64,000 nt of DNA from Escherichia phage alia. Position numbers and translations under genes: made by a program. The first letter of the stretch is position 1; every line of letters starts with the position of its first letter. The notes beneath the pieces are model-generated. The model did no database searches. It was not told where the DNA came from and saw only the letters and a program-made list of their open reading frames with translations. The stretch is taken from the sequence record NC_052655.1; one strand, given 5' to 3'. Positions 18,008 to 57,347 of this stretch are shown piece by piece.

Positions 18008-18265
18008 TTAAGAATGCATAAAATCTTCTTCAGGGCAGGTTGAGAGATAAGAGATGCACGTTGGGACAACAACAACATTATCTTTAAGGTTTTCAACCAA
18101 GCCTTTTGTAATCCCAGCCACTGCCCCGTTAATATCTGCTTGACGGATACCAAAGCCTTGTTGTGCGGATAGATAACAAAATCCCTCACCTTTCTGTTGA
18201 TTGTTATTGAAGTAATAAACGTAGTGCATCATAAAATGGTCTTTAACGATTTGCTCTGTGGTCAT
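18008..18265 (-). CDS. hypothetical protein (85 aa)
   Basis: ORF track; minus-strand AGGAG RBS upstream of ATG; last gene of the minus-strand block. Confidence 0.5.
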   Translation of the reverse strand: MTTEQIVKDHFMMHYVYYFNNNQQKGEGFCYLSAQQGFGIRQADINGAVAGITKGLVENLKDNVVVVPTCISYLSTCPEEDFMHS

Positions 18266-18282: not shown

Positions 18283-18300
18283 AAAGGGGCTTTCGCCCCC
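18283..18300 (-). terminator. rho-independent terminator (GGGGCTTTCGCCCC family)
   Basis: Minus-strand RNA would form GGGGGCGAAAGCCCC followed by UUUU; downstream of the Sir2-like gene. The same core recurs at 29567 and 42655. Confidence 0.5.
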
Positions 18301-18309
18301 TTGGTTAAG

Positions 18310-19122
18310 TTATTTAGTCAAATGATCTTCTATCATTTTTATGAAAGCAGGATTGCTAAAAGCATCTGCGGCTTTTTCTCGATAAACAAAGACTCCTCTA
18401 TCTTCGTAAAGAAGAGTTTCTTCGTAATTAATTCCTGGGTTAACAACAATCATTTTTGTACCCATATTAAGTGCAGGGAATAATTCCCAATTAAAATTAA
18501 TAACTTGGTTTGAACATCCTACTACAACAACCAAATCTTGCATGGTCAAAGTATCAAACAAGTGAGCCATATCTGCATACAAAGGTGCAGCCTCACCAAA
18601 AAATACAACATTAGGCTTCACCCAGTTATAATCATCTATGTTTATATTGTTGTAACCGATATCTACCAGTGTCTTGTAATCTCCAGGATGCATACGATAA
18701 ACTACTTCAGGAAGATATCCGTGCACGTGAATAACAGAATTTCTGTCTACACCTGCTCGCTCTAGTAGATCATCAACGTTTGTTGTCAAGTTTACTATTT
18801 GGTTAGGATATTCCTTAAACCACTTTGCTATTTGAATATGTGCAGCATTAGGTTGTACATCTTTAAGCTCAACACGTCTTTTGTTATAAAATTCGTGTGT
18901 TTTGGCATACAAATCCATACCGTTTTCGTCTACACCACCAACCACTGGAAGATCTGGAGATGTTCTCACACGATAACCTGCTTGGAAAGCTCCAATATCG
19001 CAGATCTCTTCTAAATCATATTCTTCCCATAAAGCACGACCACTATCTGTGTCTGTTCGGAATGTTCGAATCCCACTGTCTGCACTTAAACCTGCGCCAC
19101 TGACAAAAATTACTCTTCGCAT
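18310..19122 (-). CDS. Sir2-family NAD-dependent deacylase/ADP-ribosyltransferase-like protein
   Basis: N-terminus VIFVSGAGLSADSGIRTFR matches the Sir2 Rossmann signature GAGIS-x3-GIP-x-FR; 270 aa. Confidence 0.7.
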   Translation of the reverse strand: MRRVIFVSGAGLSADSGIRTFRTDTDSGRALWEEYDLEEICDIGAFQAGYRVRTSPDLPVVGGVDENGMDLYAKTHEFYNKRRVELKDVQPNAAHIQIAKWFKEYPNQIVNLTTNVDDLLERAGVDRNSVIHVHGYLPEVVYRMHPGDYKTLVDIGYNNINIDDYNWVKPNVVFFGEAAPLYADMAHLFDTLTMQDLVVVVGCSNQVINFNWELFPALNMGTKMIVVNPGINYEETLLYEDRGVFVYREKAADAFSNPAFIKMIEDHLTK

Positions 19123-19664
19123 TCAATATCCTCTTCGTAATCATCATACCAAGAAGATGCGTCGTAACGCTCTTCCTCTTCGAAATCCCAATTAATTTCT
19201 ACTCCAAAATCTAAAAACAATTTAACAATGTTTTCTGTAGAGTAGTATTTATCATAAGCATTAGCTAGTTCCCAATACTTATCACTCAATTTTTTATAAT
19301 TAGGATCATTGTAATCATGAGCTACTTTATCACCATAATCATACATCTCTTCTTCAGCTTTAAGCATAGCTTCTGGTGTAAGAAGATTAGGGAACGGACG
19401 ATTTCTTTCTTTTAACTTAGAAGCAATCCAGTTTGCAACATTCGCCACTTCACCATCTCGATTATCACCTAAACAACTTGCATAATCTCCATCTTCGTAA
19501 GTGCCTAAATCCCCACTGACTTCATGTACAATAGATGAATACGATCCACACGTTTCACAATCTGAAAAAGTGTCTACTGTTGTAATATCAATAGATAAAA
19601 CTGGTAAAGCCATAGCTTCTTTCACACAAGCCTCCTCATATAATAACATATCATCAAAACCCAT
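19110..19664 (-). CDS. hypothetical acidic protein (184 aa)
   Basis: ORF track 19110..19679 (TTG start); ATG 19664 with GGAGGA RBS chosen. Very acidic, Tyr/Asp/Glu-rich. Confidence 0.5.
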   Translation of the reverse strand: MGFDDMLLYEEACVKEAMALPVLSIDITTVDTFSDCETCGSYSSIVHEVSGDLGTYEDGDYASCLGDNRDGEVANVANWIASKLKERNRPFPNLLTPEAMLKAEEEMYDYGDKVAHDYNDPNYKKLSDKYWELANAYDKYYSTENIVKLFLDFGVEINWDFEEEERYDASSWYDDYEEDIECEE

Positions 19665-19682
19665 ATATCCTCCAGACAAATA

Positions 19683-19702
19683 AAGCCCCTGGTTGGGGCT
19701 TT
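19683..19702 (-). terminator. rho-independent terminator candidate
   Basis: AAGCCCC-TGGTT-GGGGCTT hairpin; minus-strand transcript has a U-rich tail; the RBS of the next gene follows. Confidence 0.4.
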
Positions 19703-19718
19703 GGTTAAGTTTTATGGA

Positions 19719-20330
19719 TTATACCAGACTTTTAAGGTACTTGTCAAGGGCTTCTTGATCACCTTGACAAACATAGCAACGGAAGTCTTGAGCAGAAGGT
19801 TCTTTATCCTCTTCCCAATCCCAATAGACAGTACCTTTATAGCGTGAGCCTGGGAACTCGAAGTATGCTACATGGGTAATATGGTGTGGGCCACCCCAAA
19901 ACTCTGTAAAAGTAAATTGAGGATACGCTGCTTTAACTGTATTTTCAAACCAAGTTTTACGATCTAATGCTTCGTTTATAAAATAAGCATGGCGTTCCAT
20001 TTCATCCCAATCTTTCCAAACGCATTTTTCATCCAGAGAAAAAACAAAATTCTCACTGTTAAAATCGTCTGTATCTGATTCCAAAATATCATAATCATGT
20101 GCGCTAGGTATCCACCATCCAGCTTCTAATAGGGCTTTCGCAGGTACAAAACCTTTTTCAGCGTATTGATCAAATTCTTTTACTCTACGTACAGTGCAGT
20201 ATTCATCTTCACCACCAATATCCAGTATACAAGCGCCTTTGCGTCTTGCTGCAAGACCATGTGTATCAAAAACTACAACACTACCTTCACCATCTTCACG
20301 ATCTACTTGATATGCAACTTTTTGAGTCAT
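19719..20330 (-). CDS. hypothetical protein (203 aa)
   Basis: ORF track. Confidence 0.55.
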   Translation of the reverse strand: MTQKVAYQVDREDGEGSVVVFDTHGLAARRKGACILDIGGEDEYCTVRRVKEFDQYAEKGFVPAKALLEAGWWIPSAHDYDILESDTDDFNSENFVFSLDEKCVWKDWDEMERHAYFINEALDRKTWFENTVKAAYPQFTFTEFWGGPHHITHVAYFEFPGSRYKGTVYWDWEEDKEPSAQDFRCYVCQGDQEALDKYLKSLV

Positions 20331-20453: not shown

Positions 20454-21443
20454 TCATTCCTCCATACACTTAAGAATATGTGCAATGACAGGTATAGTCC
20501 AACCATTACCTAACATCTTATATGCTTGTGTGTTACTACTCACTTTAAAGTAATCATCAGGAACACCTTGCAAGCGGCAACACTCTTTAACCGTTAACTT
20601 TCTATAATGTACACCTTCACTCAATTTTTCAAAGGCATCCAGATATCTTCCAGGTGGAATGTAAGCTAATAGTACGTCTTTCGGCACAGTCGTGAGGCAA
20701 CGAGTTTTTTCACTGTCCTGAACTTCCAAGCAATGTACCAAACGATCAGTTTTAGATGTACTACGTTTGCCATTTTCATTAATTCTACGCCCATATATTG
20801 CTGCTGGATAAAAAACCAGTTGTCTGCGACTCTTTTCAAAATATTGTTCTATATTACCACCTTTGGCATAATTTGCATCTATGCAATAAGCCTTATCCCT
20901 GTCTACAATACTATCATCTTCAATGATATCTTGCAACACTTCATTGGTAATATCCCAAGGTTTTATTTCCCAATTGCACCAGTATAAACGTTGTCTATTC
21001 TGTGCAGTGAAATCTGCGGAGTTAATGAATACGGGATCAACACCTAAGTAACTTGTGATCACGTTTTCCCACTCCACCTTCATCTTAACGTTTTCAAGCA
21101 TGAACTTAACATTAGGGTTAAACTTTTTAATATGTTCAAGAATTTCAACATATTCAAAGAACAGTTTAGATCGCGGATCTTGAAAGTTCAAACCCTTACC
21201 AGAAGAAGAGAAGCCTTGGCACGGGCTACCACCTAACAAAAGATCAATTTCTCCCCACGGGATATCCCATTCTCTCCATTTTGTAACATCACCTAATTGA
21301 ATAATATCTGGAAAATTGGCTTGGCTTTCAGCTATGGCAAATTTATCCAATTCTGAGGCATAATACTTATCTACTTCAATACCTGCACTTTTTAGTGCAA
21401 GCATTCCTCCTGACATACCATCAAAAAGACTTAAAACTTTCAT
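20454..21443 (-). CDS. DNA cytosine-5 methyltransferase
   Basis: Motif I LSLFDGMSGG (FxGxG), motif IV GGSPCQGFSSSG (PCQ), motif VI ENV, motif VIII QNRQRLYW and motif X GNGWTIPV seen in order in the translation. Confidence 0.85.
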   Translation of the reverse strand: MKVLSLFDGMSGGMLALKSAGIEVDKYYASELDKFAIAESQANFPDIIQLGDVTKWREWDIPWGEIDLLLGGSPCQGFSSSGKGLNFQDPRSKLFFEYVEILEHIKKFNPNVKFMLENVKMKVEWENVITSYLGVDPVFINSADFTAQNRQRLYWCNWEIKPWDITNEVLQDIIEDDSIVDRDKAYCIDANYAKGGNIEQYFEKSRRQLVFYPAAIYGRRINENGKRSTSKTDRLVHCLEVQDSEKTRCLTTVPKDVLLAYIPPGRYLDAFEKLSEGVHYRKLTVKECCRLQGVPDDYFKVSSNTQAYKMLGNGWTIPVIAHILKCMEE

Positions 21444-22196: not shown

Positions 22197-22717
22197 ACAA
22201 CCTCCTCGTAATTGTTATTGTGTTTTACTGTCTCAACATACAATAAAGATTCCATCTGTAAGACATTACCAGAAATAATAAACCCATAAGCCATTTCAGA
22301 TGTGTCTATATCATACGCCCCGTCTTCCGGTTTGGCAAAGTGTAAAACTATTTCATCTGGGTTTTCTTCATCCCATATTTTAGAAATTTTCCGAACCAGA
22401 ATATTAGCTAAAATAGTTGACATTCGGGATAAAGCTGTATCCTCGTATCTTTTAAAACCTAACCAATAGAGATTAAGAATTTCTACTTCTTCTTGTGTTA
22501 AGTTTTTGTCTAAAGTAATCAGATCTGTAGGATACATCGTTTTTGTTGAATCTACTATTACAAAACCTGGAGTGTTATGAAAAACAATCTTAACTTTATC
22601 ACGTATGAAGTTTAAACCTTGTGCCTCAACTATGTATTGTATTGTAGGTACAATATCGTTTGTTACATCAATAAAGCTATCTTTAATGACGCTTATATTA
22701 TTTCTGGACAAGACCAT
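22193..22717 (-). CDS. hypothetical protein (174 aa)
   Basis: ORF track. Confidence 0.55.
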   Translation of the reverse strand: MVLSRNNISVIKDSFIDVTNDIVPTIQYIVEAQGLNFIRDKVKIVFHNTPGFVIVDSTKTMYPTDLITLDKNLTQEEVEILNLYWLGFKRYEDTALSRMSTILANILVRKISKIWDEENPDEIVLHFAKPEDGAYDIDTSEMAYGFIISGNVLQMESLLYVETVKHNNNYEEVV

Positions 22718-23276
22718 TCTCCTCTAAAATAGGTTTAATAAATTCGAAGATTTGTTTTTTACTTTTACCTCGAATATTAAAACAAGGAACATTAAACTTT
22801 TTAGCCAACATCCAAGCTGTTCTTGTACCACCTAAAGGATCTCCATTTTTATCTGTATTTGCACAAGCTAAAAGAAAACAAGATGGTTTTGGATTCTCAA
22901 GATCTCTGCCAAGAACTTGGTGGATATTCCTTTGATGTAATTTTTTAGCACCTTGGGATAATCTGTCCCAAGCTGGATGCAATTCTTTTGCATATTGCAA
23001 AGTTAGAGCATAGTTCACACTGTCTGGTCTGTCAAGAACAATAACCTCTCCCTCTATCTCATTACCTTTAAACGAAGGCCAAGGAATGTATATTTCTTTC
23101 TTTGTATTGTTTCCACTATCATATACCCCGCATTCAAATGCGGAATCTGCACCTTCTGCTTTACCAGATCGCAAAATGAACCATGTAGATAACCATTTTG
23201 CAACAGCTACCATAGTGTCCCATTCTTCGTCTGTAATATCTCTGCTACCAACACCTGTGTAGAATAAATCGCTCAT
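22698..23276 (-). CDS. SLOG/DprA-like Rossmann-fold protein
   Basis: ORF track 22698..23393; start moved to the internal ATG (MSDLFYTGVGSRD...). GxGSR...SGxAxGADxA pattern resembles the DprA/Smf/LOG (SLOG) nucleotide-binding fold. Confidence 0.45.
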   Translation of the reverse strand: MSDLFYTGVGSRDITDEEWDTMVAVAKWLSTWFILRSGKAEGADSAFECGVYDSGNNTKKEIYIPWPSFKGNEIEGEVIVLDRPDSVNYALTLQYAKELHPAWDRLSQGAKKLHQRNIHQVLGRDLENPKPSCFLLACANTDKNGDPLGGTRTAWMLAKKFNVPCFNIRGKSKKQIFEFIKPILEENGLVQK

Positions 23277-23286
23277 GGTTTTCTCC

Positions 23287-23607
23287 TTAACAAGTAATAT
23301 TAGGAATAATACTGGGAGTAACAATTGGAGTAATAGGGTACGTAAACCAAGGGCTTCCAATTTCCCAAGGACTATAAGGTGTACGAGGATCAAATGGAGG
23401 CGTTACTTGAGGCTTTTTCCAAATCTCCGCTAGTTGTTTCTTCCATTTATCCCTTGCTGTATCGTTATCTTCATCCAACTGTTCGTCATTATCTTTTATT
23501 TCTGATTTTGGAAATAAAAGCTCTTTGACTAACTCAACGTCTTCCGTTTCAATAGTAGTTTCTTTCGTAATATTCCCTACCGTCTCTTTAATTGTGACTT
23601 TATACAT
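23287..23607 (-). CDS. hypothetical protein (106 aa)
   Basis: ORF track. Confidence 0.45.
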   Translation of the reverse strand: MYKVTIKETVGNITKETTIETEDVELVKELLFPKSEIKDNDEQLDEDNDTARDKWKKQLAEIWKKPQVTPPFDPRTPYSPWEIGSPWFTYPITPIVTPSIIPNITC

Positions 23608-24353
23608 TAGTCCTCCTCTAAAGTAGAATAAAATTGTAACGTATTTGAATCATCAAAATATGCAAAGGTTAAATTACCATTGAAGCAAGATCCTGTATCC
23701 ATATATACCCTATTACTGCTAATTACAGGTTTAGGAACATAAGAATGCCCGTGAAATACATAATCTACTCCTGAAACTCTAGGAAGAAGAATCCCTTCAA
23801 GGGCGCAATCTATCATATCACGATCCCACATTAAAGATTCTGTGAATCGAGATACTTGTTCTTTATTCATATTCGAACAAAATGGCAAAACTTCCGTCAC
23901 TGGTAGATGTTCCAAAACTGAAGGATATCCTCCGTGAATAAAGCCTAGTTTCATATTACGATAATTGACAACAAGTACAACAGGTAAGTCTTCTAGCATC
24001 AAAGCAAGAGCAGTTGCACCTTCTTCTCCACACTCGTTTAGAACTGTATGGCCTCCGTTCTGAAACCAACATTCGTAATATCGCCTATCACCTTCTAGCA
24101 ACCCTTTAATCATCATATCTTCGTGATTTCCACGAATAGCATAGCGATTTAGCTTTCTGGTGAATTCAACGGTACAACGAAAATTCTGCTTGCCGCGATC
24201 TGTAAGATCTCCTAAAGATACAACAACATCTTGATCTCGAATACCTAAAGTATTAACACCTTTCTGGTATAAATCAAAGCAACCATGTAAATCACCAATA
24301 ATAAACAGGTCTTGATCATCTTTTACACTAATTTCTTGATATACTAGCATCAA
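23607..24353 (-). CDS. Ser/Thr protein phosphatase (calcineurin-like metallophosphatase, PPP family)
   Basis: GDLHG, GDLTDRG and GNHE metal-binding motifs in canonical order and spacing. Confidence 0.8.
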   Translation of the reverse strand: MMLVYQEISVKDDQDLFIIGDLHGCFDLYQKGVNTLGIRDQDVVVSLGDLTDRGKQNFRCTVEFTRKLNRYAIRGNHEDMMIKGLLEGDRRYYECWFQNGGHTVLNECGEEGATALALMLEDLPVVLVVNYRNMKLGFIHGGYPSVLEHLPVTEVLPFCSNMNKEQVSRFTESLMWDRDMIDCALEGILLPRVSGVDYVFHGHSYVPKPVISSNRVYMDTGSCFNGNLTFAYFDDSNTLQFYSTLEED

Positions 24354-24686: not shown

Positions 24687-25259
24687 TTAATGTGTTAATG
24701 AAACTGCGTAACTAAACACAGGTTCAGATATTACATCGGCTACAGTAATAAAAACGTCCTCATCTTGCGTTGTTTCTACACGACATACAGTTACACCATT
24801 TACTACAAATTCAACGCAATGTGGAATATCTTCACAAACGAATGTAGTGTAAGTAACACCCAAAGCATCATACAAAGATTTAACAGTATTTGCAAGTGCC
24901 GCAGTTTCTTCTTTTTCTGAGACAATGAATGCTGTAACAACAAGATTGTTTGCATAGTTTAGACTGTCCTCTATAGCCAATGATTTACAAGGTAGTAATG
25001 CAAAATATTTACCTGGTTTAATCAGACCTGCTTCCCATTGATTCAAAATTGCCTGGGATGGTTTAGTAATATAAAACAGATTTTCACTTGGGTTATCAAT
25101 ATTACTTCTGGCGATACAACGTGAAGGATTATTAATATCAAACACATGATCAAAATCTACACAAACTGGTAAACTGAAAGGTGTAAATTTTTTACCTAAT
25201 AATCCTACTGCTGACAATATGTTTGCTGTGCTTATCTTCCCGTTAAAAGCTAAACGCAT
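24687..25259 (-). CDS. hypothetical protein (190 aa)
   Basis: ORF track. Confidence 0.55.
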   Translation of the reverse strand: MRLAFNGKISTANILSAVGLLGKKFTPFSLPVCVDFDHVFDINNPSRCIARSNIDNPSENLFYITKPSQAILNQWEAGLIKPGKYFALLPCKSLAIEDSLNYANNLVVTAFIVSEKEETAALANTVKSLYDALGVTYTTFVCEDIPHCVEFVVNGVTVCRVETTQDEDVFITVADVISEPVFSYAVSLTH

Positions 25260-26407: not shown

Positions 26408-26658
26408 TATTCATCCCAATCGTTGTTGCGAGCACTTTCAAGAACCTTGACAACTTCTGCGTACTCTACAGCTAAACCAGCACACACTTCAGCTTGTTTT
26501 GCAATTGCTTGCTTAAAGAACATAGCGATTGCAACACTCTGTGTTGTGTGAATGTTATCTGCTTTAGTTGATACATGAAGATCAAAATCTTCTTCATCAA
26601 AGGTGAGTTCCATAGTAACAATAAATTTCTCGGTCATAAAAATGCTCCTCTTAAACAA
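26407..26658 (-). CDS. hypothetical protein (83 aa)
   Basis: ORF track. Confidence 0.45.
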   Translation of the reverse strand: MFKRSIFMTEKFIVTMELTFDEEDFDLHVSTKADNIHTTQSVAIAMFFKQAIAKQAEVCAGLAVEYAEVVKVLESARNNDWDE

Positions 26659-27160
26659 AATAGAAAGGTTGAGTTAAACCCAGCCTGTTTTTTGGGTCGT
26701 AGACGTACCAAGCATATGCTGTCTTATCAGTACCACCTGCAACAAAAGATGGTCGTTCAGAAAGAACAATCAAATTTGTTGGTGGGTTCTGTTTATGGAA
26801 TTCCCTTCGTTTAATAGACTCTAGGAATCCAAGACGCAACAAGTATATGCAAACGTCTGCTTCTTTTAAGCTCTTTTGCAAGAACTCAAGTGCAAGTCTG
26901 AATGGTGGATTTGTGATTATAATATCCGGCTTAGTATGCCATTCGTGGTTAAAATAATCCTTCCCCTCTTCTAACTCACAATATTCTGATCCTTCTGGAA
27001 AATGTTGATAAATTGCAGCAGCAGCGCCTTTACACGGTTCTGCAAAAATAAAACCTTCTTCTTTAAGGTTATTAAAATCTATTACACTAAATAATGCATT
27101 TATACATTTTTGTGGAGTAGGATAGTAATCAGTTGGTGGACGATCATACTTATTTGCCAC
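26651..27160 (-). CDS. DNA N6-adenine (or N4-cytosine) methyltransferase, small
   Basis: DYYPTP near N-terminus and TNPPF (D/NPPY/F catalytic motif IV) in a 169-aa protein. Confidence 0.65.
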   Translation of the reverse strand: MANKYDRPPTDYYPTPQKCINALFSVIDFNNLKEEGFIFAEPCKGAAAAIYQHFPEGSEYCELEEGKDYFNHEWHTKPDIIITNPPFRLALEFLQKSLKEADVCIYLLRLGFLESIKRREFHKQNPPTNLIVLSERPSFVAGGTDKTAYAWYVYDPKNRLGLTQPFYFV

Positions 27161-30250: not shown

Positions 30251-30517
30251 TTACTCCGCAATCTGAGCCATGAATTCACGTAGTTCAGAAAAACCTCCTA
30301 CGTGGGTTAGCTGTTCACCATCTTCCACAAAAATCTGAGGGAATGTGCGTGGTAGAACACCTGTTTTCTCTAAAACCAGATTCTGAAGCTGATCTAAAGA
30401 ATAGTCTTCATCTAAGGTAAGATATTTAAAATCCTGTTCACGCTGTTCCAGTAGAATCTTAGCGTTAGTGCAGAAAGGACAATTTGGTTTACCGTAGATA
30501 ATAAAATTCATTTTCAC
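30251..30517 (-). CDS. glutaredoxin/NrdH-like redoxin
   Basis: Active-site CPFC at residues 13-16 in an 88-aa thioredoxin-fold-sized protein; located beside the nucleotide-metabolism genes. Confidence 0.8.
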   Translation of the reverse strand: MKMNFIIYGKPNCPFCTNAKILLEQREQDFKYLTLDEDYSLDQLQNLVLEKTGVLPRTFPQIFVEDGEQLTHVGGFSELREFMAQIAE

Positions 30518-31344
30518 TCCTTGTTTAAAAGTATAGTTAAAGTTCTTACAATACCGCTATCAACACTTCGCGGATTTAAAGTAGGATCTGTTTTTAAATA
30601 AGATGTTGCTGGTCTGACTGCTTTAGAATTATAGGTTGAAGCAGATACAGGATTAACTGTAACAGATAAATCTATAACAAGAAATATCTTACGTGCAAAA
30701 TCATACCAAGAAATATAATCTGCACCTGCATAGTGTACAATTTTACTATTTACACCATCTTTTACAAGTTTAAAAATTGTTTCTGCCAGATCAGGTGCAT
30801 AAGTAGGACATGATAAATGATCACATACTACATTAAATTCTTTTTGACCACCGTTGTAGCGTTCCAACATAGTTTTCAAAAAGTTATGTCCAAATTCACT
30901 ATAAACAGAAGCTGTTCTGATAATAAGTGCTGTAGGACAAACTGTTTGTACTAAAGTTTCACCTAATTGTTTACTGTAACCGTAGGTGTTCAAGGGGTTT
31001 GTTTCACTATCTTCTGTGCCAGCAACATGCCCATCAAAAACATAGTCTGTTGAAATATGTACAAACTGTATCAGTAAATCATTACATGCTTTGGCAATGT
31101 TTGTTGCACCGTATGCATTAACATTTATACAGGTGTTAACATCTTCTTCAGCTTTATCTACTGCTGTGTAAGCCGCACAATTCACAACAACATCAGGCAC
31201 ATGCTGTACAAGACTATTCATAACATCTTTAAAGTTGGTAATGTCTACATCACTTGCTTCAATCAAAATAACATCTTCGGGCGCAACTTTTGCCAAAGAC
31301 TGTCCTAATTGACCTTTTGAACCAAAGATTAAAAATTTTGTCAA
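30514..31344 (-). CDS. rmlD: dTDP-4-dehydrorhamnose reductase
   Basis: N-terminal FLIFGSKGQLGQ Rossmann motif, length 276 aa, last gene of the rmlB-A-C-D order. Confidence 0.8.
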   Translation of the reverse strand: MTKFLIFGSKGQLGQSLAKVAPEDVILIEASDVDITNFKDVMNSLVQHVPDVVVNCAAYTAVDKAEEDVNTCINVNAYGATNIAKACNDLLIQFVHISTDYVFDGHVAGTEDSETNPLNTYGYSKQLGETLVQTVCPTALIIRTASVYSEFGHNFLKTMLERYNGGQKEFNVVCDHLSCPTYAPDLAETIFKLVKDGVNSKIVHYAGADYISWYDFARKIFLVIDLSVTVNPVSASTYNSKAVRPATSYLKTDPTLNPRSVDSGIVRTLTILLNKE

Positions 31345-31895
31345 AATATGATCTCCTTTAGTGTTTTGGCTTGCTGATCTTTTTGTGACAAGATAGGTTT
31401 AAAATTAATATCATTAAAGATTAAATCAAAACCCCAATCTATATTGATATCTGGATCATTCCACGCAAGACTACACTCTGAAGTCGGATCGTAATATTCT
31501 GTACATTTATATTCAAAATCAGCAATGTCGCTAATCACAACAAAGCCATGAGCGAAACCAGGAGGAATCCAAAATTGTGTTTTATTCTTTTCAGATAAGA
31601 GAACACCTACCCATTCTCCAAATGTTGGACTACCAACCCTAATATCTACAGCAACATCATAAACTTCACCACGAACACAACGTACTAACTTCCCTTGTGG
31701 GTTTTTCTTTTGAAAATGAAGCCCACGTAGAACTCCTCGAATAGAACGTGAATGGTTATCTTGGACAAAGTTTTGTTTACCTATGTATTGATCATATAAA
31801 GCCTGATTAAAACTTTCTAAGAAAAAACCACGTTCATCTCCGTAAACGTCAGGTTGAATGATCAACAAATCTTCGATTTTTGTTGCTTGAATCAT
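31341..31895 (-). CDS. rmlC: dTDP-4-dehydrorhamnose 3,5-epimerase
   Basis: 184-aa cupin; ERGFFLESF and LRGLHFQ motifs characteristic of RmlC. Confidence 0.85.
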   Translation of the reverse strand: MIQATKIEDLLIIQPDVYGDERGFFLESFNQALYDQYIGKQNFVQDNHSRSIRGVLRGLHFQKKNPQGKLVRCVRGEVYDVAVDIRVGSPTFGEWVGVLLSEKNKTQFWIPPGFAHGFVVISDIADFEYKCTEYYDPTSECSLAWNDPDINIDWGFDLIFNDINFKPILSQKDQQAKTLKEIIF

Positions 31896-31906
31896 TTAAT
31901 TCCCCC

Positions 31907-32776
31907 TTATTTTAATTTAAGTAAATACTTACCGTAGTCTGTTTTACTTAAAACCTCTCCAGAACTTTTTACAGAGTCTAAAGTAATCCATTCATTTTTA
32001 AAAGCAATCTCTTCTAGGCATGCAACCTTCATACCTTGTTGCTTTTCTATTGCATGAACAAATTGAGATGCTTCCATAAGACTTTCATGTGTTCCTGTAT
32101 CCAGCCAAGTGAAACCTCTTCCTAGTTTACAGACACGTAAAGCCTTTTCTTTCCAGTACATCTCATTTATATCTGTAATCTCTAACTCCCCTCTAGCAGA
32201 AGGTTTAACGCTCTTAGCTTTCTGTATAACAGAATTATCGTAAAAGTACAAGCCTGTAATTGCATAGTTGCTTTTTGGTGCTTTTGGTTTTTCCTCAATA
32301 CTCACCACTGTACCTTCAGAATCAAACTCAACAACACCAAATCTTTCAGGATCATTTACGTGATACCCAAAAATATTAGCTCCACCATTCTTTTCAATAT
32401 GTTCTTTAGCAGAATCTAAAATGCTACCAAAACTCTGACCAAAGAATAAATTATCACCTAGCACAAGTGCTACAGAATCTTCACCAATAAAGTTCTCACC
32501 AATAATAAAGGCTTCTGCTAAACCTTTTGGACTGTTCTGTACTGCATACTGTAGGGAAACACCAAAAGAAGAACCATCACCTAAAAGATTTACAAAATTA
32601 ATTTGATCTTCTGGTGTTGTAATTATTAGTATTTCCCTAATTCCAGAAAGCATTAGGACAGAGAGTGGATAATAAATCATAGGCTTATCGTAAATTGGTA
32701 ATAGTTGTTTACTAACCCCTTTAGTAACTGGGTAAAGTCTTGTTCCGCTACCACCTGCTAAGATAATACCTTTCAT
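31907..32776 (-). CDS. rmlA: glucose-1-phosphate thymidylyltransferase
   Basis: N-terminal [18 protein letters not shown] (G-x-G-T-R-L nucleotidyltransferase signature), 289 aa. Confidence 0.9.
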
Positions 32777-32784
32777 ACTCCTCC

Positions 32785-33774
32785 TTAAACTTTATTTTCC
32801 CACCACTCTTTGTTATCTACATACCAATCAATGGTTGAATAAAGTTTTTCTTCAAATGTGCCTTTAGCTTTCCACCCTAATTCCTTTTCGATCTTATAAG
32901 GATTCACTTCATATCTCAGATCATGCCCAGGTCTATCTGTAACCATCTCAATTAGGCTACAAGCATCTGTTTCAGATGGATACACCGCATCCATATAATC
33001 ACAAATCATATAGATTACATCAATATTAGTTCTAGGGTTTCTGCTCCCAATATTATATGTTTCTCCAGATTTGCCTTTAGTTACTACTAGGTGTAATGCT
33101 TCTGCGTGATCGTCAACGTATAACCAGTCTCTTACTTGAAGACCATTGCCATAAACAGGGATTGGTTTATTCATCAAGATATTTGTTATCGTTTTAGGTA
33201 TTAGTTTTTCTGGATGATGATATGCTCCAAAATTATTTGAACAATTTGTTAGAACTGTCGGAATACCATAAGTACGATGCCACGCTCTTACCAAATGATC
33301 GCTTGCTGCCTTAGATGCAGCATATGGACTACTTGGCTTATAAGGATTCTGTTCTGTAAACGGATAATCCCCCTCTTCCATATCACCATATACTTCATCT
33401 GTTGAAATATGATGGAACATTTTAAGATTTGATTTATCTCCCATTAAACGAACAGCTTCTAGGAGATTAAATGTCCCAACAATATTTGAATTTATAAAAA
33501 CACTCGGTGATGCTATTGAATTATCTACGTGACTTTCTGCTGCAAGATGCATTATATAATCTGGATTAACATCTGCCACAATCTTAGCAGTTAACTGCGC
33601 ATTTGTCAAGTCAACACGACAAAACTTTACATTGGGTGTTTCTGATAAATTTCTAGGGTCTGAAGCGTAACCCCATTTATCTATAACGTAAATATCATTT
33701 TTAGTATTTTTAGCCAGGAAACGAACTACCGCACTTCCAATAAAGCCTAAACCACCTGTTACTAAGTATTTCAT
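32785..33774 (-). CDS. rmlB: dTDP-glucose 4,6-dehydratase
   Basis: N-terminal [12 protein letters not shown] Rossmann motif; SDR Tyr/Lys catalytic pair (YAASKAA); 329 aa. Confidence 0.85.
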
Positions 33775-46261: not shown

Positions 46262-46984
46262 TTAAGCAATGATTGCTGCGATATTAGGTTTAACAAAGGT
46301 AGATGGTTTCATAATTTTACCTTTGTCATCAAAGAATACGTACACCTTTTGAACTTCGTTATATACAGCATGTACCCCAGTATAAGAACCTTCTGCACGA
46401 TCTTTGCTTCGCATCTCGATAGCATCGCACTCTTTTTCAAGAGCTTCAATAATATCCTTAGTTTCCCAAATAGCCAGGAGTTGCTTCTTGGTAGGATACT
46501 TGGACTCATTGCTATTCAACACTTCACGCATAACCTTCTTCTCGTTATAAACAGAACGCACCAAAGTATCTCGTGCCATACGGGTAAGTGTAAGAGACAT
46601 TAAGGCAAATTGCAAGTCATTTTCTACCATTTTATCAAATTCAATGATAACATCGTAAATGTTCTCTGCCAGAACATCTCCTGTCGGCATTTCCAGAGCT
46701 TTATCAACACCTTCTTTACCAAAGAACATAAACGCCAGGTAGGATGCTACCACAAAAATATCTGCTGCTGCATCAAGTAATTCAACGTGATCATTTTCCT
46801 GTGCTGCTGCTTGAAACTCTTTAAGTTCTTCTCGTACAAAAGAAAGTTGAGCTTCAAACATCTCTTGAGTAAATTCTGGAGTTACTCCACCACGCGCCTT
46901 AGCATTCCAAGCAACAATTTGATCGGCAGCTTTGATAAAGAAGCTATTGTCCACTTTTACTTGTTTGAAAAAATTCTCGATCAT
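46262..46984 (-). CDS. MazG-like nucleoside triphosphate pyrophosphohydrolase
   Basis: REELKEF...ELLDAAADIFVVA fits the EExxE-x(n)-ExxD metal-binding pattern of all-alpha MazG/dUTPase-like NTP pyrophosphatases. Confidence 0.5.
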   Translation of the reverse strand: MIENFFKQVKVDNSFFIKAADQIVAWNAKARGGVTPEFTQEMFEAQLSFVREELKEFQAAAQENDHVELLDAAADIFVVASYLAFMFFGKEGVDKALEMPTGDVLAENIYDVIIEFDKMVENDLQFALMSLTLTRMARDTLVRSVYNEKKVMREVLNSNESKYPTKKQLLAIWETKDIIEALEKECDAIEMRSKDRAEGSYTGVHAVYNEVQKVYVFFDDKGKIMKPSTFVKPNIAAIIA

Positions 46985-46993
46985 TGTTTCTCC

Positions 46994-47200
46994 TTATTTA
47001 AAATATTGTTCTAACAAAACACTAATGCGAACTACCGATTCGCCCATATACGCCCCAGCACAAAGGAAAACAACAAATCTACAAAAATTGCAGTACCATT
47101 TGTCCACTGGAAACGAGGCTAACATTATAATTGCAATAGCAATTAACATCATAAGAACTGTTACTAATACCATATTACCTCTTACTCTGCTGGTTCCCAA
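46994..47200 (-). CDS. hypothetical membrane protein (68 aa)
   Basis: ORF track; hydrophobic stretch VLVTVLMMLIAIAIIMLASF. Confidence 0.4.
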   Translation of the reverse strand: MGTSRVRGNMVLVTVLMMLIAIAIIMLASFPVDKWYCNFCRFVVFLCAGAYMGESVVRISVLLEQYFK

Positions 47201-48297
47201 GTACCTGGAATCATCTTACGTACACGTACCCCAACAGGTTTGGTAGGAATACCTTCGTCTGAAAATTCTTCGTACTCAATTTCAACAAATTGACCAATAA
47301 GTGTCAAAGCATTTTCTTCTTTACGATAGTTAATGGTTTCATCTGAATCCTTACGCATCAGGAATTCGACTACTTTACCATTTTCCATCTCTCCTGTCAA
47401 TACCCCGTCACCATTTTTATCACGCTTTGCACTTACCACTTTAACTTCAAGCGTCTGACGTGGTTTACGTTTAATAACATCATAAGAACGTTTATCGAAT
47501 TCGTAAACACCTTTTGCGTTACGATACACCACACCTTCCGCTTTCTCATGTAGGGCTTTTGCATAGAAAGCATCAAACTGTTCTTGGTTTTCAATGTACT
47601 CTGTATGTACTACACAAATAAGTTCATCTAAACCTTTATCTTCAACAACTTCTTTTAGAGCAGCCAAAACTTGAACCCTCTTCTCAAATGGTACAGATGC
47701 CACAGGAACATCATATACATAGTATTTAAGAAGCGGTGTGTTAGCATTATGCTTTTTCCACGCACTATTAATTTGTTGAAGGCTAAGGACACCCAAGCCA
47801 GCAAAAACTTCACCGTCAAGAGGATGACCAACTACTTCTTTAATGAAGGTTGGAATTTCTTCCCAGTGAGGTGGAAGTTTATATACCTCCCCAGCTTTAG
47901 ATAAACATTCACCTTGCATGTTAATCATTGAACGTAGACCATTCAATTTATATTGTGCATAACCTGGGAACAAAACACGATCAGCATAATCTTTATAATC
48001 CTGACATTTCATGGGTGTGGAAGGAACATGGTTTTCAGCTTCCTCTTTTGTTTTATAATACCCATTCTTAAGTTGCTTTGTCCATTTGGCAAGAGCTTCT
48101 ATTTCAGCTTGTTCTTCTGCTGTTGTTTCATTTGAGCGACCAATATTTTTAGGTTCTGCTGTATAAGATTTGCTAGTAATTTTTCCACCTAATTGACCAT
48201 GAGCAACAGTTACAACACTACCTTCGGTATAGACTGACCACTGTTTAATTTTACCTGTAGAAGTTTTACCATATAATGTAGGATTAGTTTGTTTCAT
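47182..48297 (-). CDS. ATP-dependent nucleic acid ligase (likely DNA ligase)
   Basis: ORF track 47182..48345; start moved to ATG 48297 (GGAGG upstream). Nucleotidyltransferase motif I KLNGLR (KxNGxR), motif IV EGVVYRN, motif V-like VIKRK. Confidence 0.6.
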   Translation of the reverse strand: MKQTNPTLYGKTSTGKIKQWSVYTEGSVVTVAHGQLGGKITSKSYTAEPKNIGRSNETTAEEQAEIEALAKWTKQLKNGYYKTKEEAENHVPSTPMKCQDYKDYADRVLFPGYAQYKLNGLRSMINMQGECLSKAGEVYKLPPHWEEIPTFIKEVVGHPLDGEVFAGLGVLSLQQINSAWKKHNANTPLLKYYVYDVPVASVPFEKRVQVLAALKEVVEDKGLDELICVVHTEYIENQEQFDAFYAKALHEKAEGVVYRNAKGVYEFDKRSYDVIKRKPRQTLEVKVVSAKRDKNGDGVLTGEMENGKVVEFLMRKDSDETINYRKEENALTLIGQFVEIEYEEFSDEGIPTKPVGVRVRKMIPGTWEPAE

Positions 48298-48487
48298 CTT
48301 TAACCTCCAGTTGCGAAAGAACCCATTTAGCCATTTCAATTTCACCGTGCAGTCTGCCTAGTTCATAGGCATCATCAATATTACCACCAGTGTAATCATC
48401 CACCATAAAGTAAGGATCTTCGCTACTGTTAGGTGCGTTTGCAATTCTCGTTAGTTCTTCAATAAATGTCATAGTTACCCTTACCAA
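48284..48487 (-). CDS. hypothetical protein (67 aa)
   Basis: ORF track. Confidence 0.4.
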   Translation of the reverse strand: MVRVTMTFIEELTRIANAPNSSEDPYFMVDDYTGGNIDDAYELGRLHGEIEMAKWVLSQLEVKDETN

Positions 48488-48705
48488 TTATACACAAGAG
48501 TTTGAATCTCTTCCATCAAGTCTTCAAGATCTGTATCAACGTATTCAGAAGATGTTGCCATAAAGTATGTAATCATTGTGAACCCTTCCGAAGAAAGGGC
48601 ATCAAGGATATCATTAAACATATCTTCCATTTCAGTATTCTCACCAAATGAGAATAACATTTGTTGATCTTCGCTTACACCTTTAACATAGATAGCTGTA
48701 CTCAT
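48481..48705 (-). CDS. hypothetical acidic protein (74 aa)
   Basis: ORF track. Confidence 0.45.
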   Translation of the reverse strand: MSTAIYVKGVSEDQQMLFSFGENTEMEDMFNDILDALSSEGFTMITYFMATSSEYVDTDLEDLMEEIQTLVYNW

Positions 48706-48708
48706 ATA

Positions 48709-49029
48709 TTAATCCTTAAGACGTTCATTTAAATCTGCAATAACATCACCTAAATCTTCACATTCCAGTGTTAACTCTGAAACTTGTTCATTCAAACAAG
48801 AAACTTCTTCGTTTAGATCTGAAATAATATTTTCTAATGAATCTACTTGGTCATCATATGCACGTTTTGTTTCTTCAAGTTCTTCCGTAAGATCATTAAT
48901 CAAACGGAGCAAAGATAAGATATAGCCGTCTCCTGTCTCGTTCCTCCACTCACTTCCGTAGCGATAAATAATAATTTCACCATCATCGACTACTGTAAAA
49001 TACTTACCTTCACCAGAATAAATTTCCAT
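48709..49029 (-). CDS. hypothetical coiled-coil protein (106 aa)
   Basis: ORF track; C-terminal heptad-like acidic repeats (LEETKRAYDDQVDSLENIISDLNEEVSCLNEQVSELTLE). Confidence 0.5.
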   Translation of the reverse strand: MEIYSGEGKYFTVVDDGEIIIYRYGSEWRNETGDGYILSLLRLINDLTEELEETKRAYDDQVDSLENIISDLNEEVSCLNEQVSELTLECEDLGDVIADLNERLKD

Positions 49030-49038
49030 ACACTCTCC

Positions 49039-49443
49039 TTATTGTAGCTTAAGTGAACTGCGAAGACGTTTCTCTTGCTGATCACGAATATGTTGTGGAA
49101 CATCATGAATTGAGTCGTTACCGTGCCTATTTTCAACAACTAAAGAGATAACTTGATAACCAAACTCTTCAGCAAGAGTTAAATAAGGTTTAAGTTCTTT
49201 CTCTGTGGTTGAAGTGTTAGAGACAATAATCTTTTCAACACCATACTGCATATATTTTTGTACTTTGACACGACACCATTGGTGTGCTTTATGGATATTC
49301 TCTTCCTTCCACTCATACACACCATCTTCAGTGTAGTGGTATTGATCTGCCTCACAAATAGGCCAATGATTTTCAGAAATAATTTCTGCTACTGTAGATT
49401 TACCTGCACCTGAAACACCACGTAAAATGATAAGTTGTTTCAT
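49039..49443 (-). CDS. P-loop kinase, polynucleotide 5'-kinase-like
   Basis: ILRGVSGAGKSTVAE Walker A and IIVSNTSTT parallel the T4 Pnk kinase domain (ILTIGCPGSGKSTWA...VIISDTNL); 134 aa, kinase only. Confidence 0.65.
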   Translation of the reverse strand: MKQLIILRGVSGAGKSTVAEIISENHWPICEADQYHYTEDGVYEWKEENIHKAHQWCRVKVQKYMQYGVEKIIVSNTSTTEKELKPYLTLAEEFGYQVISLVVENRHGNDSIHDVPQHIRDQQEKRLRSSLKLQ

Positions 49444-50376
49444 TTAGCCTCCAAAGAAGTTTTCTATTTCTTTACGTCGCTCTTGTGGATCTAGAGCAGC
49501 CCATTGAACCTTCGTAAAGTTATTTCGAAGCCATTCTAGCAAAGTATAATATTCTTCGTCAACAATTTGTTTAGCATTGTTTGGGTTGTCCCAAATCATA
49601 TCCCACTTCTTATTGCCACCACGCATAAGGAATTTCTTAGCAAGATAGTATGGTGACTTAATCTTTAAGAGTAAGTTAAACGGATAGTTTGTTTCACGAA
49701 CAACAAAGCCTTCGTGTCTACAATGTTTAGACATTTCAACAACATCTGAAAATTTAATCATCGGATAAACTTCAGGACGTTTAAACTTTGTAACAGATGC
49801 AATCCCATCAAGAACACCTTCAGGTAACATGAAACTTGTCCCATCAAGATTTTGAATTCTTGCTCCAATTAAGTATGCGCCTGGTTCTTCTTCGACAATA
49901 TGTGGATCAGAAGGATCACAGATTTCAAAAAGGAAAGTTGCTTTTGCACTTTCTGTCCACTTAATGAAATACTCTATGTCGTCACACTCGGAAACAATAC
50001 GGTTCTTTGCCATAATTGCAAAATCTGATTCTAGGCTCCCTGTTGTTGATACAACAAGTTTCCCTTTGTACACACCTACAGATGCCATAAAACCGTTTAC
50101 TTTACGGACAGCATCTACAAGTTCATCTGCTGGAAGATCTGTACCATTCTCAAAACGATTAAAGATTTTAGTAAAAGGCCAAACAACAACATTGTCTTCT
50201 GAGTCAACAACCAACCCACGACAATCTAGAAGTCGTTTGTCAACGTTCCACAAATTATCCCAGAATACATTGTTTTTGTATTTAAGTACAGCAAGACCAG
50301 CATACTCTCCAGATTTAACTTCTTTTTTATGCACTAAACCTTTTGCAATCAGGTCATCACAATTGAACTTAGCCAC
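49444..50376 (-). CDS. RNA ligase (Rnl-type nucleotidyltransferase)
   Basis: Motif I RKVNGF (KxNG), motif IV EGFVVRE, motif V LLLKIK; 310 aa; immediately between the kinase and phosphoesterase genes. Confidence 0.65.
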   Translation of the reverse strand: MAKFNCDDLIAKGLVHKKEVKSGEYAGLAVLKYKNNVFWDNLWNVDKRLLDCRGLVVDSEDNVVVWPFTKIFNRFENGTDLPADELVDAVRKVNGFMASVGVYKGKLVVSTTGSLESDFAIMAKNRIVSECDDIEYFIKWTESAKATFLFEICDPSDPHIVEEEPGAYLIGARIQNLDGTSFMLPEGVLDGIASVTKFKRPEVYPMIKFSDVVEMSKHCRHEGFVVRETNYPFNLLLKIKSPYYLAKKFLMRGGNKKWDMIWDNPNNAKQIVDEEYYTLLEWLRNNFTKVQWAALDPQERRKEIENFFGG

Positions 50377-50377
50377 C

Positions 50378-50929
50378 TTAATCTCCTTTGATTATCTTAT
50401 GATGGTCTACAACAACAATATCACGTTTATCCATAATAGAGATGATTTCGTCAAAATGCAAGATTTTTCCGTGTGCATCCCAACCAACATCCAACATTTT
50501 CCCATACAAATGATCAGGGAATGATCCGTGAGAGTGTCCGTGTAGCATGATTGATCCATGCCCTTGTTTATTCCAGGCAGCCATAGGGTAATGGCTTAAG
50601 ACGAAAAACAGCTTCTGATATTTCACTTCGTCATAATAAATCACTTCTCCATACTCTGCAAGCACTTTTCTGTGTTTACTGTAATCATGATTCCCAACAC
50701 AGTAAGTAATATCCCCTTGGAGACGGGAAGCAATCTTACGGGTATCTTCTTCAGTCCCGAAACAGAAGTCCCCAAGATGGTACATCTTTACTCCTGGTGT
50801 TGTGGCACATTTATTCCATGCTTCGATCAGTGCTTCTGTCATATGTTCCATATCTTCCCACGGGCGATATTCAGGAGCAAACTCTCGAATACGTTTGTGC
50901 ATAAAATGCAAATCACTTGTAATAAACAT
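50378..50929 (-). CDS. calcineurin-like metallophosphoesterase
   Basis: DLHFMH...GDFCFG...GNHD...GHSH metal-ligand motifs; 183 aa. Confidence 0.75.
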   Translation of the reverse strand: MFITSDLHFMHKRIREFAPEYRPWEDMEHMTEALIEAWNKCATTPGVKMYHLGDFCFGTEEDTRKIASRLQGDITYCVGNHDYSKHRKVLAEYGEVIYYDEVKYQKLFFVLSHYPMAAWNKQGHGSIMLHGHSHGSFPDHLYGKMLDVGWDAHGKILHFDEIISIMDKRDIVVVDHHKIIKGD

Positions 50930-51288
50930 TAGTATAATCCCTCGCTGAATAGTTCACTGTCGTGACCATTTCTTTCATAGTTAATTTGTTTGGCGTTATC
51001 TGCAATGATATAAGCATCTTTGCGACTCCACCAATTATAATACTGATCAATAAACCCTTGATTATCAGGTAAGCAAAACAGTTTATCGATCAATCCTGCA
51101 TCTTTTAAAACATTAAGTTGTGCAGATAGTACAGGATTTGCATGCCTAACACAAGGAATAATTAACTCTTCGCCATTGTTGAGAATATACTTATTCGCAG
51201 CGCAGACTATAACACGTTGAGCATAGTGATCCTCACCAATCCAAGTAAGAGGTTGGTAACAAATATCATGTTGATTAGTAGCGCACAT
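50929..51288 (-). CDS. hypothetical protein (119 aa)
   Basis: ORF track 50929..51291 (alternative start); ATG 51288 chosen. Confidence 0.5.
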   Translation of the reverse strand: MCATNQHDICYQPLTWIGEDHYAQRVIVCAANKYILNNGEELIIPCVRHANPVLSAQLNVLKDAGLIDKLFCLPDNQGFIDQYYNWWSRKDAYIIADNAKQINYERNGHDSELFSEGLY

Positions 51289-51446
51289 CAATTTTCTCCA
51301 TACTCTTTTAATTTATCAGCGAAAAAACTGTAATCAGGAAGTAAAAGATCATTACTCGTATCGCTCCAGTTTTCTTCCTCTCTATAGATAAAATGCCCTT
51401 CATCCTCTTCTTGCTCTGACCAAACTGAGTAATGCATAACACCTAC

Positions 51447-54717: not shown

Positions 54718-54727
54718 ATAATAAGTG

Positions 54728-54762
54728 TTGACAATAGGGAGTATGCTTAGTAAGATACTCCC
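54728..54762 (+). promoter_or_regulatory. promoter overlapping a stem-loop
   Basis: TTGACA 54728-54733, 17-nt spacer, TAAGAT 54751-54756; inverted repeat GGGAGTAT...ATACTCCC (54737-54762) encloses the -10. Confidence 0.45.
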
Positions 54763-54788
54763 ACACTAACAAACAAGGAGACATAACT

Positions 54789-57263: not shown

Positions 57264-57271
57264 TATTCAAG

Positions 57272-57347
57272 GTTCCATAGCTCACTGACGAGAGCGCACA
57301 CCTCATAAGTGTCGAGGGCAGGGATTGTAACCCTGGGGAACCACCAT
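57272..57347 (+). tRNA. tRNA-Met/Ile2 (anticodon CAT)
   Basis: Hand-folded cloverleaf: acceptor GGTTCCA/GGGAACC (one mismatch), anticodon loop CTCATAA, 3' CCA encoded. Confidence 0.55.

Follow-up and report, generated by a model that had tools for sequence, protein, structure and literature searches.

We identified the gene at 18310..19122 of the Escherichia phage alia sequence (NC_052655.1; the 64,000-nucleotide stretch analysed here is referred to below as the window) as encoding a sirtuin, the orthologue of phi92 gp038 and of T5.102. The protein belongs to a family of viral sirtuins, has an intact and conserved catalytic apparatus, is predicted to adopt a CobB-like fold and has lost the zinc-binding cysteines. 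We tentatively read it as a zinc-free lysine deacylase of the CobB/SIRT5 type, dependent on NAD+, which would act on host or phage proteins, an assignment that alignments and the predicted model favour but that we hold at slightly below an even chance. The substrate class, and a biological purpose in remodelling the acylation of host or phage proteins, are what we infer from these features. Annotation of the gene as a sirtuin is correct, and the family, its zinc-free state and its genomic contexts are already known from the literature.

The open reading frame lies on the minus strand and runs for 270 codons from an ATG start, with GAGLSADSGIRTFR corresponding to residues 9-22. Its match to Pfam SIR2 (PF02146) scored 80.7 bits (cut-off 24; E=1.6e-22), which places the product in the Sir2 superfamily, and it matched PHROG 2162, 'Sir2 (NAD-dependent deacetylase)', over residues 1-269 with E=2.5e-104. 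The strength of these two matches rules out a chance ORF and indicates that 18310..19122 is a real gene. Together with the alignment to CobB described below, they bear out the original prediction, which had proposed a phage-encoded Sir2-family protein from a 270-aa ORF carrying the Sir2 Rossmann signature and had given no strand.

The window belongs to a phi92-like E. coli myovirus (genus Justusliebigvirus): over the 4.5 kb surrounding the gene, identity to such phages, for example pEC-M2929-1AR.1, phi92 and EmilieFrey, was 97-98.7%. In phi92-like records the orthologue already bears a Sir2 or sirtuin annotation, and a Sir2 annotation of the gene exists in about 980 phage records overall. A tblastn search returned sirtuin homologues in 981 phage records. 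Identity was 95-98.5% for the phi92-like sirtuins, 65-75% for those of phAPEC8-like phages and their Klebsiella relatives, 58-61% for T5-like, about 55% for Mydo-like (56% for Mydo itself) and about 47% for rV5-like phages, and 30-39% for KVP40-like Vibrio phages and jumbo phages, the sirtuin of the BF-related Erwinia jumbo phage pEa_SNUABM_12 being ~37% identical. The match to T5.102 is stated in the Mydo record itself. In a large protein database, homologues made up more than 1000 clusters, nearly all of them from phage-sized contigs. By homology the protein is a member of PHROG 2162 and of the viral sirtuin clade, and it has in common with its kin a small domain free of zinc as well as the motifs FYNxRR, TTNVDDL, HG, KPNVVFFGE and GCS..VINFNWELFP. 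A variable insertion of ~25 residues (residues ~47-72) also occurs in the T5-like versions but is missing in those of rV5 and Mydo.

The literature that we found on this family consists of two in silico treatments (PMC5107563, PMC9503650), and our search of it found no biochemical or genetic characterisation of any family member. In the first of these, the Sir2/CobB proteins of the KVP40-like Vibrio phages phiSt2 and phiGrn1 were proposed to activate acetyl-CoA synthetase, a proposal whose only basis was modelling and the levels of transcripts (Skliros et al. 2016, PMC5107563). These proteins resemble the sirtuin described here in being zinc-free, in keeping the catalytic His and in residing together with NAD+ salvage genes, but they are 38-39% identical to it and form a more distant branch in another phage lineage.

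The best sequence match in the PDB was E. coli CobB (1s5p; E=1e-18), with Sir2Af and SIRT5 also among the best. In the alignment H134 fell on the catalytic His of CobB, H147, and H134/G135, G9-S13, F21/R22, N115/D117 and N228 all aligned with catalytic or NAD-binding residues of the bacterial enzyme. Y79/R82 occupied the positions of CobB Y92/R95, the class III Tyr-x-x-Arg pair for acidic acyl groups through which SIRT5 and CobB bind the carboxylate of succinyl and malonyl groups. Counterparts of the acyl-lysine tunnel were found in V116, V172 and V207 (CobB I131, V187 and V219, respectively), and F175 matched the Phe of the CobB FGE loop, which is a substrate loop.

These residues were also strongly conserved. 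In a 42-member family alignment the invariant positions were G9, A10, G11, S13, S16, F21, R22, C41, F78, Y79, R82 and R83 in the first part of the protein, and N115, D117, H134, G135, K169-V172, F174, F175, E177, G202, S204 and N228 in the second. A wider sample of 135 family representatives, clustered at 50% identity, kept H134 and N115 throughout (135/135 each), R22 in 133, D117 in 130, Y79 in 129 and R82 in 104. The position of N228 was occupied by Asn in 107 of these representatives and by Asp in 21; with this position excepted, the HG and NAD-binding motifs were 96-100% conserved, and conserved catalytic and NAD-binding residues reached relatives of about 35-40% identity. Judged from these alignments, the catalytic and NAD-binding apparatus of the sirtuin is intact and under strong purifying selection. 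The original prediction would have fallen on the absence of a catalytic His and of NAD-binding residues; all of them are present, and they are invariant or nearly so.

The AlphaFold model of the sirtuin had a pLDDT of 89.4 and a pTM of 0.87, with low confidence only in the cofactor-binding loop (residues 23-29) and in part of the variable insertion. The predicted structure has the Rossmann and small domains of the sirtuin fold. When it was compared with the PDB using Foldseek, CobB was the first match (E=5e-17; TM 0.72 query-normalised and 0.85 CobB-normalised), followed by Sir2Af1/2, Sir2Tm, SIRT5 and SIRT2, and the top 50 matches were all canonical deacylases. Alignment and predicted model both point to the class III deacylases CobB, SIRT5 and Sir2Af1 as its closest characterised relatives. 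CobB is the NAD+-dependent lysine deacetylase and desuccinylase of E. coli. Like CobB (1s5p, 6rxj), SIRT5 and Sir2Af1, the phage protein has the catalytic His, the Asn/Asp residues, GAGxS, the FGE loop and the Tyr-x-x-Arg pair. Unlike CobB, to which it is ~25-27% identical, it is without zinc cysteines, has a Cys (C41) where CobB has Ala76, carries a four-residue insertion in the cofactor loop that is conserved in the phage clade (RTDTxSG), and replaces the usual 'VYP' substrate loop with the clade-specific motif VINFNWELFP, in which 'VIN' stands for 'VYP' and the Pro becomes Asn. The best score against the NCBIfam CobB-related models (NF040867, NF001753 etc.) was 107 bits against a cut-off of 243, and the CobB equivalog gave 86.7 bits against 320. 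On these profile scores a CobB orthologue is excluded, and the sirtuin would be classed as class-III-like.

Defence Sir2 NADases (ThsA, DSR1/DSR2, Sir2-HerA, SPARSA) also have a Sir2 Rossmann fold, use NAD+ as substrate and lack the zinc module. The original prediction had viewed the phage gene in the light of such NAD-depleting systems, a framing for which we found no support. The best match among the PADLOC defence profiles was not significant (E=0.015 over 37 residues), and neither a defence-type Sir2 nor a SirTM structure was among the top 50 Foldseek matches; on these results we rejected a defence-type Sir2 identity. Unlike the defence NADases, the phage sirtuin is a stand-alone protein encoded by a virulent phage: its 270 aa form a single domain with no sensor domain, it has no partner gene, and no macrodomain, HerA, TIR or Argonaute partner appeared in the annotation or scans of the window.

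To our knowledge, all characterised deacylase sirtuins carry a Cys4 zinc module, and the zinc-free sirtuins with a characterised activity are ADP-ribosyltransferases or NADases. The phage protein does not have the Cys4 module of the canonical deacylase sirtuins (classes I-IV and U). Its only cysteines are C41 and C203, the stretch from H134 to K169, in which CobB has its zinc ligands, contains no Cys, and no conserved Cys was present in the zinc-ribbon region of the family alignment. Of the two features that the original prediction had singled out for alignment, the catalytic His was thus recovered and the zinc-binding cysteines were found to be absent. Relatives of 40-47% identity fall into two groups, one with a Cys4 ribbon (C..C..IGY..C..C..KPNVV) and one that is Cys-free. 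Since the segment has the same length in both groups and both retain the IGY and KPNVV landmarks, the zinc-free state is a degenerate ribbon within an unchanged architecture. A cluster look-up of the Cys4-bearing relatives returned metagenomic members only, and one of them, P0162, was at most 37% identical to known phage sirtuins. The missing zinc site has already been described for the sirtuins of KVP40-like phages (PMC5107563).

The missing zinc cysteines might be taken as a sign of decay, as expected if the protein were a catalytically dead decoy or sponge that mimics a host or defence Sir2 or merely binds NAD+. The decoy was already part of the original prediction. Against this proposal, the catalytic and NAD-binding residues are invariant or nearly so down to about 35-40% identity, and the Cys-free segment has kept its length and landmarks. 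We consider it highly improbable.

A long minus-strand block, made up mostly of nucleotide-metabolism genes, has the sirtuin as its last gene but one (Table 1). The block includes ribonucleotide reductase, thymidylate synthase, thymidine kinase, dTDP-rhamnose genes, PhoH and an endolysin, and it also holds the methyltransferases, the DprA-like protein and the NinI-like phosphatase. The likely true start of the upstream ORF (ORF189) is an ATG at 19664 with GGAGGA before it. The stop of this ORF and the start of the sirtuin overlap by 13 nt, and translation of the two genes may therefore be coupled. The upstream sigma-70 promoter may drive ORF189 and the sirtuin as a unit transcribed by host RNA polymerase. 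The ORF189 protein is acidic and has conserved cysteines at C18, C41, C44 and C69; we found no recognisable fold or family for it. The gene is confined to phi92/phAPEC8-like phages and is absent beside the sirtuin in KP2025, T5-like and rV5-like phages, which argues against a general sirtuin partner. We rejected paralogy of ORF189 with the other 'putative aminoacyl-tRNA synthetase' (24687..25259), to which it showed no similarity.

The original prediction had also placed the sirtuin in a host-takeover or counter-defence island with a SLOG-fold protein, a phosphatase and two DNA methyltransferases. The SLOG/DprA-like protein, the phosphatase and the C5 methyltransferase were all recovered, and the second methyltransferase stands on the EmilieFrey annotation only. 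The island itself is a loose description: the block is mostly devoted to nucleotide metabolism, and in the phage loci compared no neighbouring gene stays beside the sirtuin beyond the phi92/phAPEC8 group. The RNA-repair cluster and the NAD+ salvage genes elsewhere in the window are more informative associations than the neighbours.

Table 1. Positions of the sirtuin, its motifs and the associated features in the window.
Feature	Position	Strand	Remarks
Small 85-aa ORF	18008..18265		Follows the terminator-like hairpin
Terminator-like hairpin GGGGGCGAAAGCCCC, then T run	18284..18302	minus	Immediately after the sirtuin stop codon
Sirtuin CDS, 270 aa	18310..19122	minus	Pfam, PHROG, CobB alignment, model
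Sirtuin motifs, first part	residues 9-82		GAGLS 9-13; F21/R22; clade-specific loop insertion T23-G28; C41; Y79/R82
Sirtuin motifs, rest	residues 113-228		TTNVDDL 113-119; catalytic H134; Cys-free zinc-ribbon remnant ~136-168; KPNVVFFGE 169-177; GCS 202-204; N228
Upstream ORF (ORF189)	19110..19679	minus	184/189 aa; PHROG 9509, function unknown
GC-rich hairpin	19682..19702	minus	Conserved, weak T tract; between promoter and ORF189
Perfect sigma-70 consensus promoter	19718..19747	minus	TTGACA, 18 nt, TG-extended TATAAT; identical in EmilieFrey
C5-cytosine DNA methyltransferase, Dcm-type	20454..21443		PF00145, E=3e-43
DprA-like (SLOG-superfamily) protein	22698..23393		PHROG 768
NinI-like metallophosphatase	23607..24353		Pfam Metallophos, PHROG 246
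Second methyltransferase	26651..27160		EmilieFrey orthologue annotated 'putative N6 adenine methyltransferase'; no Pfam match
MazG-superfamily (PRA-PH) protein	46262..46984	minus	Homologue directly downstream of sirtuin in rV5-like MaxBurger
ATP-dependent DNA ligase	47182..48345		Homologue in rV5 cluster
RNA-repair cluster, overall	49039..51821	minus	Non-adjacent to sirtuin
P-loop polynucleotide kinase	49039..49443	minus	
T4 Rnl1-type RNA ligase	49444..50376	minus	
Metallophosphoesterase	50378..50929	minus	
cREC domain protein	51447..51821	minus	
PRPP synthetase	53824..54717	plus	NAD+ salvage
Nicotinamide phosphoribosyltransferase (Nampt)	54789..56522	plus	NAD+ salvage
Array of 15 tRNA genes	57271..59758	plus	

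The clade to which the sirtuin belongs has been linked to RNA repair through its gene neighbourhoods. In proteobacterial phages, Iyer, Burroughs and Aravind (2022) recognised 'a distinct clade' of viral sirtuins, with rV5, Mydo, T5-like SP15 and Serratia phage BF among the examples, reported RNA ligase, cREC, kinase, MazG, phosphoesterase, 2H, Nudix and HAD genes in the neighbourhoods, and predicted from these a Tpt1/KptA-like removal of the RNA 2'-phosphate (PMC9503650). We confirmed such neighbourhoods in MaxBurger, Mydo and BF. The order in rV5-like MaxBurger is RNA ligase, cREC-like gene, sirtuin and MazG-like gene; the kinase and phosphoesterase genes there are divergent, and tRNA genes adjoin. 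The neighbourhood in Mydo resembles that of MaxBurger, and the genes flanking the BF sirtuin include a Nudix gene and a small one annotated 'RNA ligase'. The window holds homologues of the entire rV5 cluster, but these RNA-repair genes (46.2-51.8 kb) lie 27-33 kb from the sirtuin. At the sirtuin itself there is no RNA-end-processing neighbourhood, the neighbours being unknown ORFs, the Dcm-type methylase, the DprA-like protein and the NinI-like phosphatase. The gene is therefore detached from the cluster in the phi92 and phAPEC8 lineages, whereas it is flanked by the cluster in rV5-like phages and Mydo.

The distribution of the ligase differs from that of the sirtuin. The Rnl1-type ligase was found in 700 phage records, and many of the Pseudomonas and Streptomyces phages bearing it were not among the sirtuin matches. 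Salmonella phages contributed 15 records for the ligase vs 289 for the sirtuin, counts which indicate that T5-like phages keep the sirtuin without an Rnl1-type ligase. The sirtuin also has a pI of 4.9, and the family as a whole has a median pI of 5.06 (range 4.65-5.78) and a net charge of about -13. Such uniform acidity is unlike a polynucleotide-binding enzyme.

The NAD+ salvage genes provide the other association. Around the BF sirtuin lie a cytidylyltransferase-family gene, Nampt and the gene of a Nudix hydrolase. Phage Bas30 we take to be T5-like. This member of the BASEL collection carries the NAD+ rebuilding system NARP3 (PMC13464706), and in KVP40-like Vibrio phages the sirtuin occurs together with NAD+ salvage genes (PMC5107563). 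Nampt was present in 2042 records and is far commoner than the sirtuin, so the association with NAD+ supply amounts to compatibility, and a specific linkage is unsupported. NAD+ supply genes fit any NAD+-consuming activity of the sirtuin.

Acting as a deacylase, the sirtuin would hold NAD+ in its Rossmann domain through GAGxS, F21/R22, N115/D117 and N228, and would take up the acyl-lysine of a host or phage protein in a hydrophobic tunnel formed by C41, V116, V172, F175 and V207. With H134 as the general base, the reaction would yield nicotinamide, O-acyl-ADP-ribose and the lysine freed of its acyl group. Retention of the Y79/R82 pair suggests that the enzyme would accept acidic acyl groups of the succinyl or malonyl type besides acetyl. 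The nicotinamide released could be recycled by the phage Nampt and PRPP synthetase. Several observations count against a deacylase, namely the missing Cys4 zinc module, the change of the 'VYP' Pro to Asn, the clade-specific loops, the scores far under the NCBIfam CobB cut-offs, and the RNA-end-processing neighbourhood in rV5-like, Mydo-like and jumbo phages. Host CobB has been reported to restrict T4 and lambda (PMC4271551), which makes the benefit to a phage of a CobB-like activity non-obvious.

If the published prediction held for the protein studied here, the sirtuin would be an RNA-repair enzyme that transfers ADP-ribose from NAD+ onto the 2'-phosphate of a healed RNA (tRNA) end, the phosphate leaving as ADP-ribose cyclic phosphate in analogy to Tpt1/KptA, and it would act with the ligase, kinase, phosphoesterase and cREC protein against host anticodon nucleases. 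The sirtuin is 47-59% identical to those of Mydo (the direct basis of the prediction) and of rV5-like and T5-like relatives, its homologues lie among RNA-end-processing genes in MaxBurger, Mydo and BF, the window contains both the whole set of rV5 cluster homologues and 15 tRNA genes, and the Y79/R82 pair, a carboxylate binder in SIRT5, could in principle bind phosphate. We nevertheless regard RNA repair as unlikely. The gap between sirtuin and cluster is found here and in the phAPEC8-like and KP2025 relatives, the spread of the ligase differs and T5-like phages do without it, the family is uniformly acidic, and the hydrophobic residues of the acyl-lysine tunnel are kept; the neighbourhood in jumbo phages can also be read as NAD+ salvage (cytidylyltransferase-family gene, Nampt, Nudix). 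The likeness to Tpt1/KptA is only a proposed functional analogy, an NAD+-dependent ADP-ribosyl transfer to an oxygen nucleophile (PMC9503650), and the Tpt1/KptA fold is unrelated to that of sirtuins. A modest chance also attaches to the broader proposal that the zinc-free acidic clade is not a deacylase, and that it turns its His/Asn/Asp residues and Tyr/Arg anion pair to a phosphate-bearing or otherwise non-protein substrate, with the 2'-phosphate of repaired tRNA and NAD-derived metabolites or immune signals as candidates.

Smaller still is the chance we give to a protein or small-molecule ADP-ribosyltransferase or an NAD+ glycohydrolase, which would modify a host target in the manner of T4 Alt/Mod or of zinc-free SirTM, or would break down NAD+ or an immune signal derived from it. 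The activities of the characterised zinc-free sirtuins known to us are of this kind, the cofactor and substrate loops both show clade-specific changes, and NAD+ supply genes co-occur, as they would for any NAD+-consuming activity. Set against these points, no defence Sir2 profile matched, the top 50 structures included no defence or SirTM fold, and the window scans returned none of the partners (macrodomain, HerA, TIR, Argonaute). Retention of the acyl-lysine tunnel and of the class III Tyr/Arg pair moreover points to an acyl substrate, and depletion of NAD+ by an NADase would oppose the phage's own investment in Nampt. A CobB/SIRT5-type deacylase is the reading that we tentatively prefer.

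This copy of the gene represents no new kind of gene, and its value is comparative. That the sirtuin has been kept in spite of its genomic separation from the RNA-repair cluster is relevant to the published RNA-repair prediction; the ligase-free T5-like phages, the 27-33 kb gap and the acidity of the protein together weaken that prediction. The family is found in ~1000 sequenced phages, among them T5, a model phage, and many candidates for therapy, and it stands at the meeting point of NAD+ warfare and possibly tRNA repair. Should the non-deacylase proposal be true, the clade would represent a new sirtuin chemistry that T5, rV5, phi92, KVP40 and jumbo phages, all large and virulent, bring to conflicts over tRNA or NAD+. 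The activity of the family, once known, would explain why large virulent phages with NAD+ regeneration genes retain a sirtuin.

Homologues of all genes of the rV5-like cluster, the RNA-end-processing genes that flank the sirtuin in rV5-like phages such as MaxBurger, were found together in the complete RNA-repair-type cluster of the window. The sirtuin, a 270-aa Sir2-family protein, lies inside the rV5-like cluster but is missing from that of the window.

Features of the window and of sirtuin surroundings in two other phages (L002 and L008 in their own coordinates)
Feature	Location	Strand	Content
Sigma-70 consensus promoter	window 19718..19747	-	12/12 match, extended -10 element
dTDP-L-rhamnose biosynthesis set	window ~30514..33774	-	four genes, RmlA/B/C/D-like (EmilieFrey annotation)
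RNA-repair-type cluster, complete	window 46262..51821	-	MazG-superfamily protein, ATP-dependent DNA ligase, P-loop polynucleotide kinase, T4 Rnl1-type RNA ligase, metallophosphoesterase, cREC domain protein
NAD+ salvage genes, NARP2-like	window 53824..56522	+	PRPP synthetase, nicotinamide phosphoribosyltransferase
DaisyDussoix (T5-like), downstream of sirtuin	L002 7165..8507		168-aa protein with HAD-type DIDGVLN motif; two paralogous proteins, 131 and 142 aa
Serratia phage BF sirtuin run	L008 1812..7671		in order: cytidylyltransferase-family protein, Nampt, 149-aa 'RNA ligase', sirtuin, Nudix hydrolase

Directly upstream of the sirtuin lies ORF189 (19110..19679, minus strand), whose ortholog in the phi92-like phage EmilieFrey is annotated as a putative aminoacyl-tRNA synthetase, as is that of a second ORF at 24687..25259 (minus strand). 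The latter was compared with ORF189 only, and this comparison revealed no relation between the two proteins. Since no family or fold match was detectable for ORF189, its synthetase label looks unfounded. The protein contains conserved cysteine residues (C18, C41-x2-C44 and C69) that could serve as metal ligands. The sigma-70 promoter upstream of ORF189 overlaps the final codons of a 203-aa ORF, and is kept in EmilieFrey and partly in one phAPEC8-like phage. The dTDP-L-rhamnose set, which corresponds to bas61_0211-0214 of EmilieFrey (L001 33517..36778, in the coordinates of that locus), is embedded in a nucleotide-metabolism block and may serve to modify either DNA or the surface.

Several database labels also call for comment. 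About 25 'Campylobacter phage' records (MG065635-MG065689, host C. jejuni) either show 98% DNA identity to phi92-like coliphages or hold rV5-like genes, and appear to be wrongly labelled or contaminated. Similarly, a T5-like sirtuin turns up in a 2.7-kb record labelled 'Listeria phage'. The sirtuin homologue of Pectobacterium phage DU_PP_V (P0066, 59% identical) bears the source name 'tail assembly protein', which is probably a misannotation.

The surroundings of the sirtuin were also inspected in more distant phages. The two DaisyDussoix paralogues share 31% identity with each other. In the jumbo Serratia phage BF, the small 'RNA ligase' is probably of the 2H type. In the window, the PRPP synthetase/nicotinamide phosphoribosyltransferase pair lies just upstream of a 15-tRNA array (57271..59758). 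The Serratia phage BF run, for its part, lends itself equally well to a reading as NAD+ salvage or as RNA repair.
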